A stretch of 64,000 nt of DNA, taken from the IMG/VR virus record IMGVR_UViG_3300033141_003168, positions 32,001 to 96,000 of that record; one strand, written 5' to 3'. The translations under genes were made by a program, and so were the position numbers. This stretch comes from a virus. The notes under the pieces were generated by a model. That model ran no database searches, was not told the origin of the DNA, and saw nothing but the letters and a program-made list of their open reading frames with translations. Positions 57,822 through 64,000 of the stretch are shown here, piece by piece; position 1 is the first letter of the stretch; each line of letters opens with the position of its first letter.

Positions 57822-60800
57822 ATGGATTTAGAAAAAATTTCAGTACCTTATGAAAACCTCAATCAAATAAAAGAACTCGACGACGACGTACTCCTTGACG
57901 ATCACCGCTGGATGCATGTTTATTGGGCTAACTTAAAACGCGGAAATAAAATGGAGAATTGGGATAAAGAAATCGTAAAGAAAACCCATGCCGCAATAGT
58001 ACAGGAAATGTTACTTAGATTTTTCTTTCCCGCGATGGCACTTGAACTCGACCAGACAGAAGAAACTATTAAAGTTGTTACTGAATGGTTAGAATTAGGT
58101 GCAATGAAAGTTATAAGTGCCGCAGAGGGAATGGATTTAATTCGTACTGAAAGTTTTATTGAAAATGTTCATAAACACACAAAAATTCCACAAGGGATTT
58201 TAATTGCACTTTGGAATGTAGTTGAAATGGAATTAAATAATCGCGGTATGCCGGGAGGAAATGAACCGTCCTGGAATCAGGAAAAACAACAAAGTGGTTC
58301 CGGTCGTGGTTCGGCAGGAAAGCAGAGAGGCAGTTATAATAGTCCCACGTTCGCCTACATAGCAGTTTACGGCAAAGAACCTGATATACCTTTAAGCGGC
58401 AGAATAAACAGCCCTGAGAAGGAATGGAAAGATGGTATACTCGTAGACGAACATTTAAAACTCGAATGGCTTGATTCAATCGACGCAATCGAGGAACTTG
58501 AGTTGAGAGCTTCATGTGAAGGCCACGGTGAAAACAGGGTTACGCATGTGGTTGTTCGTTTAAAATCGCGTAACGAAACCGAAAGCAAAAAATTAGTTGA
58601 AGTGTTAAACAATAAAGACGATATTTATTCAAAATATGATGTAGGAACAGAAGGATATCCCCGAATAGTTATTGCGGGAAAAACGTGGTACGGTCAACCA
58701 GGTTGGAATGATTGGTGGGAGACTTTATCTGAAAAAATAAAAACGGCACTAAAAGCAATTAAGAAAGAGCTTGAAGAAAATTTATCAGTAGGAAAATCTT
58801 TACTCGTTTGTTCCAATTCGGAATGGTATTCAAAATATTCTTTACCGATCGCAGAATCTGACATAGAAGAAACGGATTGGATTGAATTTGAAAAAACGAA
58901 ACCGCCTTTTATGTCGCCCGGTGGCAAGATGCGGCAATCAAAACAACTTGTAACTTACATACCCGAACATAAGATTTACTGTGAACCGTTTGCGGGGGCG
59001 GCAAACGTATTATTTAGGAAAGAACCTTGCGAAAATGAAATTCTTTCCGATCTTGATTCGGATTTAATTGTTACGTGGAAGTTCATCAAAAGTTGTTCTG
59101 AAATTGATTTGGGAAAATTGTCAAGATTTTATTGGGAGCGGCCCAAAGATAAAAAACATTTTAAATCTATTTCAGATCAAGAATGCGATAGCATGCTTGA
59201 TACGGTTTATAAGTTTATGTATGTTCGTTACTGGGGTTTCCGAGGCGGTAAAACATTTAGTGAATCAATCGCACAAGATCGCACGGCACTTCAAGGATCG
59301 GCATGGGAACGAATTAAAGGGAAAATAGTACGGGCTAAAGATCGAGTTAAGAATGTGAAGTTCGAGCGGGCGAATTACGAAGATGCCATCGCAAAACACG
59401 ATTCCAAAATTACGTTTTTTTATCTTGACCCGCCTTACGGCAAGACAGGTGCACACTATTGGAAAACTTTAGATTATGAAAAACTCCTAAATGTGGTAAA
59501 AAAAATAAGAGGCAATTTTTTATTGCAACTTCACAATGATGATAAAATAAAAAATTTATTTGGAAAGCATTTTAAAATTTACACAATCACTGCTCGATAT
59601 ATTAGAAATCAATCGTCGCCAGACATGGGACAATTATATAATGAGACGGAATTACTTATAAGCAACTATGAATTAAAAACAAGTGCAAGTAAGTCATTTG
59701 CAATGGACGATGATCTTGCACCCGTGGCATCTTCAGGAATAGAGTTGGGTAAAGAAATTCAGTTTGATGACATTCTTTCCGACTTCAACGACGATTATGT
59801 AATTGATCCGGCTTTCATTTCTCTTGGCGGGAACATTCTTTCGGGTGAAACAGATGAAATGGTTGATTACCACGTGAGTGGAAATTTCGGGCAAGATTTC
59901 AAAGTGCCACTTGAATTCAGACTTGGACGCGGTTCATCTTTTACCGAACGGCAGTCAATAAATTATCATGCCGAAAAAACGGATGTAGAATTAGAACCGC
60001 TATATGCACTCGTAGCGCGAAGGATAAATAAGAAAAATACTATCATACAAATGAACTTTACGGATCGCGTTTCTACTCCGCAGAATCCTCCTGATTTAAT
60101 TACTCCGGAAACCGGAGTAGTTTTTGAAAAAAGTGGTGAAACAAATCTGATTTTAAAAGAAACCGTCATAAATGAGGCAAAGGCATTTATACTTGTTACG
60201 CCATTCGTTTACGTAGTAGGTGGTGTAGTTACGCAAGGCGCAACCAAAGGCGATGTAGACATTCTTATTCGAGGACAGTTCGATGAACCGTTTCTTAGTA
60301 AAATTACACAACCGCTAATTGATAGATCGAGTACACCAAAACGACTTCACTTTCTTGACGACAAATATCACGGCCCATTTACTGCTCACGTTCCGATTTA
60401 TGAATTGATGCTTGTGCCGGTAAGTTTGCTGGAAAATTCAGATACAAAAAAACAAAGAGTGGCTTCGCCAGAATTAATAAGGGAGGCGGCGCGGTCAAAA
60501 TCAGAAGATCGTATAGAAATGTTTCGCTTCTTCACCGCAATGAAACCGACGAAAGGATTTTTTCCGGAACAACGACAAACAATAGATGCGTTTTTATCGC
60601 TTTTTAAGGAAGACAATTTTCCAGTAATGGCGACTAAAAAATATGATGGTATGGCTTCGCTGTGTTGGAAGTCCGGAAAGCGTGTAGAAATATGGTCTAT
60701 CGAAGGAGAAAATAATACCGACCGTTTTCCGAATGTCGTAAAAGAAATTCAGGAACTAAATGCGGATGAACTCGCTTTGCTTATTGAAATTGAAATGTGG

Positions 60801-63800: not shown

Positions 63801-64000
63801 TTTCTTGATTTCGGAAAGAAAAAAGTCGCTCACATATTGTTACAATCCAACCCCTTGACAGAAAAATCAGTTTCGGCTACAGTGAAACCAGACATAGATA
63901 AAGAAGTAATGTCCTTAGAAGGTTTTCAAAAACCGGGAACGCTCCTTAACCCAACAAAAGAAACACCATCGTGGGTTAAGATTAAAGATAAGGGAAAAAT
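57822..64000 (+). CDS. giant multidomain protein (>2,059 aa, 3' end outside window): SCEGH domain, Dam-like N6-MTase, two NTase-like domains, ATP-dependent DNA ligase, C5-MTase, LigD-type phosphoesterase and a second PE-like copy
   Basis: Translated by hand from ATG 57822 (GGAGG RBS) with no stop found to 64000. Motifs: EPFAG/DPPY (59427), GG..GDVD (60249), KYDG (60639), EGVVAK, DLCSGAGG/PCQ (61974)/ENV/QxRRR/GNAV, QHH..HTDLR (~62815). Confidence 0.9.
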   Translation, partial: MDLEKISVPYENLNQIKELDDDVLLDDHRWMHVYWANLKRGNKMENWDKEIVKKTHAAIVQEMLLRFFFPAMALELDQTEETIKVVTEWLELGAMKVISAAEGMDLIRTESFIENVHKHTKIPQGILIALWNVVEMELNNRGMPGGNEPSWNQEKQQSGSGRGSAGKQRGSYNSPTFAYIAVYGKEPDIPLSGRINSPEKEWKDGILVDEHLKLEWLDSIDAIEELELRASCEGHGENRVTHVVVRLKSRNETESKKLVEVLNNKDDIYSKYDVGTEGYPRIVIAGKTWYGQPGWNDWWETLSEKIKTALKAIKKELEENLSVGKSLLVCSNSEWYSKYSLPIAESDIEETDWIEFEKTKPPFMSPGGKMRQSKQLVTYIPEHKIYCEPFAGAANVLFRKEPCENEILSDLDSDLIVTWKFIKSCSEIDLGKLSRFYWERPKDKKHFKSISDQECDSMLDTVYKFMYVRYWGFRGGKTFSESIAQDRTALQGSAWERIKGKIVRAKDRVKNVKFERANYEDAIAKHDSKITFFYLDPPYGKTGAHYWKTLDYEKLLNVVKKIRGNFLLQLHNDDKIKNLFGKHFKIYTITARYIRNQSSPDMGQLYNETELLISNYELKTSASKSFAMDDDLAPVASSGIELGKEIQFDDILSDFNDDYVIDPAFISLGGNILSGETDEMVDYHVSGNFGQDFKVPLEFRLGRGSSFTERQSINYHAEKTDVELEPLYALVARRINKKNTIIQMNFTDRVSTPQNPPDLITPETGVVFEKSGETNLILKETVINEAKAFILVTPFVYVVGGVVTQGATKGDVDILIRGQFDEPFLSKITQPLIDRSSTPKRLHFLDDKYHGPFTAHVPIYELMLVPVSLLENSDTKKQRVASPELIREAARSKSEDRIEMFRFFTAMKPTKGFFPEQRQTIDAFLSLFKEDNFPVMATKKYDGMASLCWKSGKRVEIWSIEGENNTDRFPNVVKEIQELNADELALLIEIEMWDDGKHLPREATVGYVHSDSPADDSQITANVFDIVYVKGLETDVKDLPEGDIHKEPFSIRDDVLKALSFEQETDGVPDPKIKLNRTPSHKAENAEELKKLTNKLSATPGSEGVVAKPAKGTYVLHGRRGEQIKFHVSAVANVIVIKRIPISGAKNVYTYLFGFKVQGQDISDKKRVRMRGKEYLSSGKTFNTSLLAKVGEVIEIEFEQLNYIINLDSGEEDVTLWAPRVMRKINVAGDSIAGVIKKAKDENILVTKEIENKTIVYKTWDNYNENFLKSLFNEYNVEWIKDVSINNDSFSKSDFYNDFSKKADSLSGLISIDLCSGAGGLSLGLEKAGFSTAIMSDLDDDSMITAEKNFKNTVIWKADLFKLDFQKLHKSLRGKQLNLLAAGLPCQGHSVRGKGKHSESVDEIENTHESFNKLYKYFLKGVMILQPEFILIENVPGILSNENGKYANLIIYGLKKLNYDVEYKILKAEEYGVPQIRRRVFFIGNRLGLPIIYPRSTEKRISTWDAIKDLSNKSEDVDFGHIIPKHSTETKNRISQVKPGKKYVTESGKEGYALRRIPKDKPAYTILASTTLIHPTLDRFLTPRECARIQSFPDSFKFHGGSQSQFRQIGNAVPPELAKAIGLVMKKQLVNYKNSKEKIYKNFEKQKDPYMIIPDENEIYNFVAQHHARGKSIHTDLRMESEDKDFLIGYTLDDQIKSAIKEPILTLAQLKKVDADDSNFKINWSDGTWDKRKRGEVLVNVNINTQKKAIEPVEWLGYEGVVESGGEEKPAPGATRFFPGVFHVVDKGTVEYGSQRSYFHEYFLSGKKLNYRIIVRLLNLPAGTEGDIPKSCLVADDFIIGKEENLITTETGLVYKDSLKAEEILPPSEPQEVSVPGPIRLTMKPIDQRPYVLSKRAVDKGWMPPDKKSALPKQIRKKIPDEFQYWKVTGTKARDIRDSLVKAIKDGVVKIEFEEIRKQEEDKEIKGDYTFSYQWFKGPVVVREGPSKEQWHIFLDFGKKKVAHILLQSNPLTEKSVSATVKPDIDKEVMSLEGFQKPGTLLNPTKETPSWVKIKDKGK
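60097..60123. repeat. 27-bp palindromic element, copy 14 (inside the giant ORF)
   Basis: TAATTACTCCGG-AAA-CCGGAGTAGTTT, read as LITPETGVVF. Confidence 0.9.
63358..63384. repeat. 27-bp palindromic element, copy 15 (inside the giant ORF)
   Basis: TAATTACTACGG-AAA-CCGGATTAGTTT, read as LITTETGLVY. Confidence 0.9.

Follow-up and report, generated by a model that had tools for sequence, protein, structure and literature searches.

What kind of protein is encoded by a reading frame of more than 2,000 codons placed directly behind the portal and MuF genes of a phage, and does it act in the cell that makes it or travel inside the virion? This question is raised by a 64,000-nucleotide stretch of viral DNA (hereafter, the window), representing positions 32001-96000 of a 110,331-bp IMG/VR record with terminal repeats. 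A sequence-only reading had described one stop-free frame that starts at 57822 and reaches the window end; the full record confirmed it. In the ORF listing the frame is open over 57822..63998 of the forward strand (2059 aa, 3' end open), while in the full record it reaches 2106 aa (L009:23-6343), continuing 47 codons beyond the window to a TAA stop at window-equivalent positions 64140-64142, 142 nt past the window. It is preceded by a strong ribosome-binding site, and its length, together with three Pfam domains above their cut-offs (D12 methyltransferase, C5 methyltransferase and ATP-dependent ligase), shows that it is not a chance frame. It is a real gene, and a late gene of a bacterial myovirus of about 110 kb. 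All the domains proposed earlier were recovered in the proposed order, with positions matching within a few tens of bases (Table 1).

Table 1. Features of the giant ORF and its upstream neighbours, in window coordinates
Feature	Residues (aa)	Position	Strand	Evidence or remark
Large terminase gene		51887..53488	+	phrog_2 terminase large subunit, 6e-20
Portal gene		54015..55706	+	PF04860 Phage_portal, 6e-27
MuF-like minor head protein, C-terminal ATLF/zincin-like domain		55711..57780	+	PF04233, PF07737, phrog_115
Shine-Dalgarno GGGAGG		57811..57816	+	5 nt upstream of ATG, read directly
Giant ORF		57822..64000	+	2106 aa overall, continues beyond window
N-terminal helical module	1-150	57822..58271	+	phmmer mapping, MAFFT alignment
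'SCEGH' domain	172-312	58335..58757	+	three stand-alone homologs
D12/Dam-class N6-adenine DNA methyltransferase	358-620	58893..59681	+	PF02086, phrog_56, Dam structures, motifs
Degenerate NTase-like duplicate	628-760	59703..60101	+	BLASTP to ANMV-1 protein; same stretch of relatives as NT2
Dispersed hairpin repeat of the genome, in-frame copy	759	60100..60122	+	encodes LITPETGVV
Minimal Pol-beta-superfamily NTase-like domain (NT2)	776-875	60147..60446	+	signature, pLDDT, fold matches
ATP-dependent DNA ligase, adenylation and OB domains	903-1225	60528..61496	+	PF01068 4e-12, motifs
C5-cytosine DNA methyltransferase cassette	1303-1630	61728..62711	+	PF00145 5.8e-59, motifs
PE1, LigD-type 3'-phosphoesterase barrel	1648-1822	62763..63287	+	invariant residues, hhalign, AF2
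Disordered insert	1823-1862	63288..63407	+	pLDDT <50
Conserved linker	1872-1958	63435..63695	+	150/150 relatives, pLDDT >90
Second PE-like barrel	1964-2103	63711..64000, continues beyond window	+	structure and profile matches

The proposed placement in the head module was borne out, as the order of genes is terL, portal, MuF, giant ORF, Peptidase_S78 prohead protease (HK97-type), phrog_1623 virion protein, followed by neck and tail sheath genes. The MuF-like protein matched PF04233 at 2.5e-6 (28.7 bits, slightly below the 29.6-bit cut-off) and, in its C-terminal domain, PF07737 at 1.3e-8. A prohead protease had also been expected; it is present, but as a separate gene directly after the giant ORF with its own RBS, not as a C-terminal domain of the giant protein. 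Three independent IMG/VR contigs (L019, L020, L021) display the same series from terL to phrog_1623, and in a fourth (L018) the giant ORF carries a fused XkdF protease and is separated from phrog_1623 by an intervening ORF.

The C-terminal part of the protein was found to define a family. As anticipated, a LigD-type 3'-phosphoesterase (PE) barrel is followed by a second PE-like copy, and the two are judged homologous from their profiles (hhalign 96.9%, E 1.7e-10). For the PE fold, LigD PE made up all of the top 7 Foldseek matches. PE1, whose predicted structure has AF2 pLDDT >90, is enlarged by a subdomain insertion of some 55 aa and keeps an intact metal site of the Mn type (H1667, H1674, D1676, R1678). 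These four residues are invariant in 148-149 family domains (clusters <=50% identical), which points to a predicted working active site. They correspond to the metal-binding residues and the Arg identified in CkoPE and MbaPE (PMC3082917), in the same pattern Q-x-H...H-x-D-x-R. Compared with CkoPE, the family has one residue more between the two His besides the insert, and the phosphate-contacting His51 and Tyr55 are replaced by Glu (mostly) and Trp, so the substrate or chemistry of PE1 may differ. The second barrel shares the eight-stranded fold of these enzymes (VIA-align Z 16.6 to 3P43, rmsd 2.0 A over 120 residues; Z 15.6 to 3P4H; Z 14.1 to 3n9b; profile matches to PDB at 1.3e-6 to 2.6e-6) and retains none of the six catalytic residues, and it is predicted to be catalytically dead. 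Between the barrels lies a linker with invariant Pro and Trp (DQ.PYVLS.RAV.K.W.PP.G.SALP..IR..IP...YW), whereas the disordered insert after PE1 is missing in most aligned homologs.

This PE-linker-PE region is shared by at least 956 clusters at E<=1e-3 (349 at E<=1e-30) and newly marks them as one large family, for which no published name was found. Its members are head-module polyvalent proteins of uncultured viruses; in 50,697 GenBank phage records the archaeal virus ANMV-1 was alone in having one. Domain counts were taken over the best 150 members. PE and linker occur in all 150 and the second barrel in 127, and the core can be described as a barrel with a predicted active site, the linker and, usually, a second barrel that looks inactive. 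A minimal NTase (54/150) and a complete ATP-dependent DNA ligase (88/150) are commonly found upstream of it. A C-terminal prohead protease, which the sequence-only reading had proposed to look for, is indeed fused as XkdF in 49/150. DNA methyltransferases are the commonest added cassettes; D12 domains were noticed in 34/150, with up to four copies per protein at varying positions, and the D12 slot differs even between two otherwise collinear proteins of 58-65% identity, showing that the methyltransferase cassettes are mobile and inserted at varying junctions.

The ligase of the present protein has motifs I (K940 being the motif I lysine), III, IIIa, IV and V (K-F-H), plus a motif VI-like W-x-P-R, and ligase motifs are conserved across the family. 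The family profile matched archaeal and Lig1 structures at 5e-22 and the LigD ligase 1vs0 at 3.5e-9. In one relative, an intein was observed inside the ligase. The C5 methyltransferase, which matched the M.HaeIII and M.HhaI structures at 1e-24 and displays the motifs PCQ, ENV, QxRxR and GNAV, has no counterpart at the ligase-PE junction of ANMV-1 and most relatives, and the GC content of its cassette is 34%, that of the core about 40%. The D12 methyltransferase, with EPFAGAA at 388 and DPPY at 536, matched PF02086 at 1.1e-17 (65 bits, the cut-off being 22), phrog_56 at 1e-36 and E. coli Dam structures at 5e-4.

The pair of a degenerate and an intact Pol-beta-type NTase-like domain was also found as described. 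NT2 bears the signature G800-G801-x9-D811-x-D813, kept in 65-70 of 72 family domains, and its model (AF2 pLDDT >90), searched against 48,161 chains, gave minimal NTases as the top six matches (Z 5.7-3.8). The match is modest, with a best Z of 5.7; protein-AMPylating minimal NTases provide the closest folds, and a nucleotide-adding role is putative. The upstream duplicate (AF2 pLDDT <50), which matches the N-terminus of the ANMV-1 protein (BLASTP 3e-6), retains G-G with the first Asp of DxD gone (MVDYH). Further upstream, the 'SCEGH' domain proved to be real, having three homologs that stand alone as proteins of 166-201 aa, are 49-56% identical, lack Pfam domains and share NSPT.AY.AVYGK, RAS and AGKTWYG, but the Cys and His of the motif it was named for are not conserved, and a PDB profile search gave no match. 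The N-terminal helical module (LLDDHR..W..K.G..W..H..I..EM..R) is common to other family members, where it often stands immediately before the NTase-like domain; it had no Pfam, PDB or Atlas match.

With reference to these observations, we lean slightly towards reading the protein as a polyvalent enzyme that is loaded into the virion and ejected with the genome. The PE-linker-PE core in this phage has gained the 'SCEGH', Dam-class and C5 cassettes at domain junctions, as well as the degenerate NTase duplicate. The protein would co-assemble into the procapsid with the protease/scaffold from the next gene, perhaps be cleaved at linkers, and exit along with the DNA. Inside the newly infected cell, the phosphoesterase would clean blocked 3' ends, the ligase would reseal breaks or join genome ends, and the methyltransferases would modify the incoming DNA. 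We infer its processing, delivery, substrates and timing as we do its packaging, and loading into the capsid is probable. A prohead protease has to enter the procapsid to act, and the XkdF fusion in relatives may be regarded as the strongest argument at hand that the protein is incorporated into the prohead; it reaches the present phage by homology only, since here the protease is a separate gene.

That same separateness fits a protein that is a late cytoplasmic enzyme acting in the producing cell, which would methylate progeny DNA before packaging, seal nicks in concatemers and heal ends; the place of its gene in the head operon would set the timing only. Phage methyltransferases normally act upon progeny DNA. 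The giant ORF is the sole DNA ligase detected in the genome and its sole D12-class and sole C5 methyltransferase, which fits equally well, and a PF01555 scan of the genome returned one sub-cut-off fragment and nothing more. Moreover, Pol III alpha, DnaB and RecA are encoded by the phage itself, which might need such enzymes in the producing cell. Nevertheless, in one third of the family the protein is a covalent fusion with a prohead protease, and bacterial and archaeal viruses alike keep the gene in the slot between MuF/portal and protease/capsid genes. We regard cytoplasmic action in place of packaging as less likely, yet still a serious rival, and the two are not mutually exclusive.

Comparison with known systems also favours virion cargo to some extent. 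DarB of phage P1 carries methyltransferase and helicase domains. P1 packages this protein of about 2,000 aa, similar in size to ours, in its head, and the Dar proteins are ejected together with the DNA, which DarB protects from restriction (PMC12810830). The likeness is one of description. Loading of DarB needs DarA and Hdf, and DarB is without ligase or PE; the giant protein is linked instead to MuF and the prohead protease. Likewise, in the main text of their survey, Iyer et al. (2017; PMC5512222) described single giant polypeptides with many enzymatic domains, including DNA methyltransferases, encoded beside the MuF/portal genes of terminase-portal phages, and predicted packaging and injection from this context. 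That main text contains no ATP-dependent DNA ligase or LigD-type PE ('ligase' refers to RNA ligases); unlike the proteins described there, the present family has a constant PE-linker-PE core, a ligase, a minimal NTase and, in one third, fusion to XkdF.

The logic of LigD end-joining, suggested earlier for this protein, stood in part. In LigD (LIG, PE and POL, working with Ku in NHEJ), too, one polypeptide unites an ATP-dependent ligase with a 3'-phosphoesterase that has the same fold and the same metal-binding His/His/Asp and Arg, and the ligase-phosphoesterase unit is conserved in the 88 ligase-bearing relatives, including ANMV-1. The analogy is functional only, as Ku was looked for in the genome and not found, no primase-polymerase domain was Pfam-detectable, and the PE is C-terminal to the ligase, duplicated, with a predicted dead second copy and an altered phosphate-binding site; identity with LigD was therefore rejected. 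The ANMV-1 protein AJP62006.1 (KP703175), from a virus of an uncultured archaeon and annotated merely as 'ATP-dependent DNA ligase', is a true member, with NTase-like domain, ligase, PE, linker and second PE, 25-28% identity to the giant protein over both halves, and a gene directly downstream of the portal gene. Unlike the giant protein, it has 866 aa and is without the methyltransferase cassettes and the N-terminal modules.

We consider it improbable that the core is instead an RNA-repair or anti-toxin kit, in which the PE would heal the 2',3'-cyclic or 3'-phosphate ends that anticodon nucleases or HEPN RNases of the host leave behind, the ligase would reseal RNA, and the minimal NTase would AMPylate and neutralise HEPN-type toxins like MNT antitoxins. 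MNT and HI0073-type minimal NTases, HEPN-MNT antitoxins among them, come nearest to NT2 in fold, and resection of 3' ribonucleotides and removal of 3' phosphates are activities of LigD-type PEs (PMC3082917). Since relatives carry 2H phosphoesterase (2/34), RNA_ligase (1/34) and also metallo-beta-lactamase domains, the ends targeted may be those of RNA. Against this, the ligase, which has an OB domain, is a member of the DNA-ligase family, its profile is closest to archaeal and Lig1 enzymes, a 5'-kinase domain was not detected, and the commonest cassettes modify DNA.

Even less probable is a core that serves mainly as a non-catalytic, scaffold-like or capsid-targeting assembly device bringing protease and cargo into the prohead; the core is the invariant part, always adjoins the protease or sits C-terminally, also stands alone (about 440-470 aa), and has a second barrel without any catalytic residue, but the invariance of the PE1 site argues for catalysis. 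An assembly chimera, or separate genes whose stops were erased by sequencing error, can practically be dismissed, since, though the closest relative's contigs in IMG/VR are interrupted within the gene, an ortholog of 2,101 aa exists on an independent 109,727-bp contig, dozens of relatives of 1,000-2,300 aa have an identical domain order, and there are zero stops across 2,106 codons of 38% GC DNA.

Again, a second in-frame copy of the hairpin repeat listed in Table 1 was observed at 63361-63383, inside the disordered insert that follows PE1.

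With regard to the open frame itself, the full record confirms the stop-free run from 57822 to the window end that the sequence-only reading had described: the ORF listing gives 57822..63998 (+) up to the window edge, and 47 further codons past it lead to a TAA stop, for a total of 2,106 aa. The record behind the window is a 110,331-bp IMG/VR virus sequence with terminal repeats, and a GGGAGG was observed 5 nt 5' of the ATG of the giant ORF. It is preceded by a large terminase gene (phrog_2), then a 115-aa ORF, the portal gene (PF04860) and the gene of a MuF-like protein whose C-terminal domain is ATLF/zincin-like, and on the 3' side follow a prohead protease, the phrog_1623 virion protein, a neck protein and then a tail sheath; the giant ORF therefore lies inside the head-assembly block of a myovirus. 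Pfam gave no match on the 3' virion genes. A C-terminal prohead protease followed by a capsid gene had been anticipated, and this holds in part, as there is no protease within the ORF, which ends at aa 2106, but an HK97-family protease is the next gene and phrog_1623, a candidate for the capsid protein, comes after it. The protease gene begins 27 nt past the stop in a different frame, with its own GGAGG and ATG. Within the giant ORF, that frame is free of stops only across the final 8 codons; no X XXY YYZ heptamer was seen there, and a -1 frameshift joining the two genes was rejected.

Positions of the giant-protein modules, neighbouring genes and other genome features (aa, residues of the giant protein; L009, the full-record stretch holding the giant ORF and the genes 3' of it; counts, giant-protein segments mapped onto the best 150 of 956 relatives)
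Feature	Position	Match or remark	Best relatives with feature
N-terminal helical module			9/150
'SCEGH' domain	aa 172-312		6/150
D12 MTase	aa 366-593	Pfam 1.1e-17, 65 bits (cut-off 22)	34/150, up to four copies
Degenerate NTase-like copy	aa 628-760
NTase-like domain	aa 776-875		54/150
Ligase (adenylation domain)	aa 929-1121	PF01068 4.1e-12, 46.6 bits (cut-off 26.2); 51.3 bits in genome scan	88/150
C5 MTase	aa 1312-1626	Pfam 5.8e-59, 200.6 bits (cut-off 22)	5/150
First PE-like region and linker	aa 1648-1822 and 1872-1958		150/150
Second PE-like barrel	aa 1964-2103		127/150
MuF-like protein	window 55711-57780	C-terminal domain matches anthrax lethal factor family (PF07737, 1.3e-8), zincin-type metallopeptidase
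Prohead protease, HK97-family	L009:6370-7791, directly 3' of giant ORF	PF04586 6.7e-9, weaker XkdF match; long C-terminal extension
phrog_1623 virion structural protein	3' of prohead protease	PHROG match
Neck protein, then tail sheath	further 3', after phrog_1623
153-aa protein of head module	L009:9206-9667	C2H2-type zinc-finger match near C-terminus, 2e-4, below cut-off
DNA polymerase III alpha, 1,238 aa	window 12417-16133	PHP, NTPase, finger and HHH domains; uracil-DNA glycosylase fused N-terminally
Intein splitting thymidylate synthase-like gene	window 28352-30499	Intein_splicing 3.6e-12, Hint_2
IS605 OrfB/TnpB-type gene within phage genome	window 41722-42891	OrfB_IS605, Cas12f1-like TNB, HTH
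M16 insulinase-type peptidase domain pair and VWA-domain protein	window 37529-38806 and 716-2230
Hairpin repeat copies	window 2232, 7534, 16876, 19195, 26453(-), 34367(-), 45410, 47135, 48196(-), 60100, 63361

The C-terminal region, where a LigD-type 3'-phosphoesterase (PE) and the start of a second PE-like copy had been proposed, was modelled with AlphaFold2 (aa 1648-2106, 45-sequence alignment; mean pLDDT 85.9) as two barrels with a helical linker and one disordered insert, and both copies are upheld. The seven best Foldseek matches in the PDB were all LigD-type phosphoesterases, each at probability 1.0, and in VIA-align the second barrel matched CkoPE (3p43; Z 16.6, 120 residues at rmsd 2.0 A), MbaPE (3p4h; Z 15.6) and PaePE (3n9b; Z 14.1), with the next unrelated chain at Z 4.5. 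Family profiles also match 3P43 and 3P4H by sequence on the second barrel (1e-6 to 1e-5). The two barrels align to each other in hhalign (probability 96.9%, E 1.7e-10, 115 columns), and this duplication, together with the active-site motif, suggests that the first barrel shares the PE fold. Pfam LigD_N (PF13298) had no match in this genome at E<=10 and reached 1.4e-5 in one of 34 relatives. With phmmer, the PE and NTase segments found nothing among PDB sequences, and no informative named match came from a BFVD fold search, in which the top hit was an unnamed 827-aa entry (E 6e-5).

In characterised PEs, Mn is coordinated by two His and one Asp, the phosphate is contacted by an Arg and another His, and a Tyr completes the active site (PMC3082917). 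The equivalents of CkoPE H9, H15, D17 and R19 (H1667, H1674, D1676 and R1678) are invariant in the 148-149 family PE1 domains, while, in a register taken from sequence alone, H51 is replaced by E1751 (E in 101 family members, Q in 17, H in 15) and Y55 by W1755, with an invariant lysine, K1748, close by. We read the first barrel as a predicted active metal-dependent phosphoesterase with a variant second shell. The second barrel retains none of the published catalytic residues, and we take it for a non-catalytic copy with a possible role in binding nucleic acid or a partner.

A phmmer search with aa 1648-2106 against 1.84 billion representatives disclosed 956 clusters at E<=1e-3, 349 of them with E<=1e-30; in length, the best 150 of the 956 range from 335 to 2,337 aa. 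No second barrel was detectable between the linker and the XkdF-type protease in eight homologs (P0072, P0093, P0099, P0106, P0108, P0114, P0128 and P0135); since a subset of the family thus misses this barrel, the truly invariant part is PE1 with the linker. The ten members looked up had no source annotation or were called 'hypothetical protein', PHROG had no entry over the ligase or PE region, and a scan of genome contigs found no relative. Among 50,697 GenBank phage records, the PE-linker-PE module was found only in ANMV-1, a virus of uncultured archaea (KP703175), whose 866-aa 'ATP-dependent DNA ligase', encoded directly 3' of the portal gene, consists of an NTase-like domain, ligase, PE, linker and second barrel; the family is seemingly restricted to uncultured viruses.

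The remaining enzymatic modules of the sequence-only reading were likewise recovered, and we regard the domain identities as firm, that of the NTase-like domain as probable. In the ligase, residues K940-Y-D-G, E989/E991, F1024-D, E1103-G..K1108, K1125-F-H1127 and W1217-x-P-R1220 were found, which we take to be motifs I, III, IIIa, IV, V and, in the OB fold, VI of the superfamily. In an alignment of 96 family ligase domains, conservation extends to the Lys of motif I, to motifs III, IIIa and IV, to the first Lys of motif V and to the OB W/Y-x-P-R. At the second motif V position, 45 members have His and 38 have Lys, so His here is a family trait and not a defect. Among structures, the family ligase profile matches those of archaeal and Lig1-type ligases (5e-22). 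In one homolog (P0005, at L017:5626-10833), the ligase domain is interrupted by an intein that carries a LAGLIDADG endonuclease; inteins usually occupy functionally important sites.

The intact NTase-like domain, modelled at pLDDT >90, displays G800-G801-x9-D811-V-D813, fitting the Pol-beta-superfamily signature hG[GS]x9-13Dh[DE]h, and its positions are kept in the family (G 70/72, G/S 67/72, D 66/72, D/E 71/72). In a fold search the six best of 48,161 chains were minimal NTases, with modest scores (Z 5.7-3.8 over 64-71 residues; Foldseek E 0.1-0.4). The segment preceding it matches the N-terminal end of the ANMV-1 protein (3e-6) and, in the relatives, the region that the intact copy also matches; one catalytic Asp is lost from it and its model is poor. 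By these alignments it is a degenerate duplicate, as had been supposed.

Both methyltransferases scored well above their Pfam cut-offs with catalytic motifs in place. The D12 MTase, of the N6-adenine class, has EPFAGAA (SAM) at 388 and the catalytic DPPY at 536 and matches E. coli Dam among PDB sequences at 5e-4, and the C5 MTase matches M.HaeIII and M.HhaI near 1e-24 and has motifs I SGAGG, IV PCQ, VI ENV, VIII QIRRR, IX RECARIQSFPD and X GNAV at 1316, 1385, 1433, 1475, 1584 and 1610. Among the best 150 relatives, MTases are irregularly placed, before the NTase, at the ligase/PE junction, at the linker/second-barrel junction or after the second barrel. An independent contig of 109,727 bp encodes a 2,101-aa ortholog that is collinear with the giant ORF and 58-65% identical; its D12 domain is missing from the aa 360-610 slot and lies instead after the C5 domain. 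This shift, the lower GC of the D12 (36.5%) and C5 (34.3%) cassettes against about 40% in the core domains, and a ligase-PE junction that is empty in ANMV-1 and most relatives support in-frame exchange of enzyme cassettes at domain junctions. In the homolog P0013, an S-adenosylmethionine decarboxylase domain (PF02675, 1e-19) is sandwiched by two D12 MTases.

The 'SCEGH' domain does exist as a unit, with three stand-alone homologs of 166-201 aa that lack Pfam assignments; NSPT.AY.AVYGK, RAS and AGKTWYG are conserved in it, but the name-giving Cys and His are variable. Because the stand-alone homologs read SDEGK or SDAGK, a catalytic Cys/His motif was ruled out. A PDB profile search with this domain returned nothing, the ESM Atlas held no usable match for aa 1-360 or aa 171-345, and Pfam on six unassigned segments of the giant protein gave only noise at E<=10. 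The N-terminal helical module was found again at the N-terminus of simpler members, often immediately before the NTase-like domain, which suggests N-module, NTase, ligase, PE, linker, PE as the ancestral order.

Regarding known systems, the earlier likening to LigD end-joining stands as far as a ligase, a PE and a minimal NTase occur in one protein. Bacterial LigD, however, has a primase-polymerase (POL) domain, which Pfam did not detect in the giant protein, whole or in segments, and whose place is taken by the minimal Pol-beta-type NTase. Ku (PF02735) gave nothing in the 110-kb genome at E<=0.1, and a host Ku is possible. With neither Ku encoded nor a primase-polymerase domain, the giant protein is not LigD. 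In kind it resembles polyvalent proteins, which, according to their survey, carry 2 to 15 distinct effector or enzymatic domains per polypeptide of a phage or mobile element, those adjoining MuF and portal genes having already been surveyed (PMC5512222). The giant ORF resembles them in its at least eight modules, five with enzyme signatures, and, as with the phage class of these proteins, it and its relatives sit among virion genes (MuF, portal, terminase); P1 DarB, a packaged protein of about 2,000 aa, is an example that has been characterised (PMC12810830). The combination had not been recognised as characterised, and this agrees with full-text literature searches, which found no description of it, and with the main text of the survey, which mentions neither a LigD-type PE tandem nor an ATP-dependent DNA ligase (PMC5512222). 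What appears to be new is an invariant LigD-type PE tandem, usually accompanied by an ATP-dependent ligase and a minimal NTase and often covalently joined to a prohead protease.

This last link bears directly on capsid loading. A jackhmmer search with the C-terminal domain of the homolog P0007 placed an XkdF-type protease in 50 of the 150 best relatives, at the extreme C-terminus in 49, and Pfam confirmed the XkdF (PF14550) fusions at 1e-24 to 1e-30. On one independent IMG/VR contig (L018), terL, portal and MuF are followed by a member of 1,766 aa with XkdF at its C-terminal end, then by a 393-aa ORF and phrog_1623, and the closest relative, on the independent contigs L019, L020 and L021, has the gene order of this phage. 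Since a prohead protease has to be within the procapsid to act, the enzymes attached to it in the XkdF-fused relatives are almost certainly co-assembled. In this phage the protease and the giant protein are separate genes, so the case for loading would rest on homology and position, and we consider it likely on balance that the giant protein enters the capsid. On the other hand, the giant ORF holds the only detectable ATP- or NAD-dependent DNA ligase and the only D12 and C5 MTases of the genome (an N6_N4 MTase family scan gave a single fragment below cut-off), so these enzymes may be needed in the producing cell, which weakens the delivery model.

Virion-carried, co-injected phage proteins such as P1 Dar, T4 Alt and the N4 virion RNA polymerase act ahead of phage gene expression. 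Possibly, although we put this forward with some doubt, the family represents a widespread unnamed class of capsid-loaded nucleic-acid end-repair machines, in which uncultured bacterial and archaeal tailed viruses would use the prohead protease, or the adjoining conserved PE-linker module, to bring into the particle an active 3'-phosphoesterase together with a DNA ligase, a minimal NTase and exchangeable MTase cassettes, so that the injected genome heals and reseals defence-nuclease cuts or joins its ends before phage gene expression. RNA ends may also be the target, since the extra domains of some relatives are a 2H phosphoesterase, an RNA ligase or a metallo-beta-lactamase. If the delivery model is true, a ligase and a LigD-type end-healing enzyme tied to a capsid-maturation protease would be a new kind of injected cargo, suggesting that many uncultured phages and archaeal viruses counter restriction or other nuclease defences by repair and not by avoidance. 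The family is large and without a Pfam, PHROG or source name, while its catalytic residues are sharply conserved; for biochemistry it offers clear targets in the variant active site of the PE and the motif V His of the ligase, and it is also a natural system for in-frame exchange of enzyme cassettes at domain junctions.

With reference to the host, the phage encodes a bacterial-type Pol III alpha (UDG-fused), DnaB and RecA, which rule out for this phage the archaeal host that ANMV-1 had prompted. The closest named relatives of the prohead protease were observed in Elusimicrobiota MAGs (P0169, P0208, P0222, P0228 and P0245), and from both lines the host is a bacterium, possibly of that phylum. 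The zincin-type domain of the MuF-like protein is, as judged from its family match, a candidate second virion-borne enzyme, or a processing protease acting on the giant protein.

A 23-nt imperfect hairpin, TTACTACGGAAACCGGATTAGTT (stem ACTACGG/CCGTAGT-like, loop AAA), was noticed in 11 copies in the window against 0 expected, and in 17 copies in the genome. At least five copies sit 1-2 nt 3' of a stop codon, for which a terminator or regulatory stem-loop would fit. Two copies are in frame within the giant ORF at domain junctions, at aa 759 and 1846, both reading LITxETGxV; these in-frame copies are absent from all 150 of the 150 homologs.
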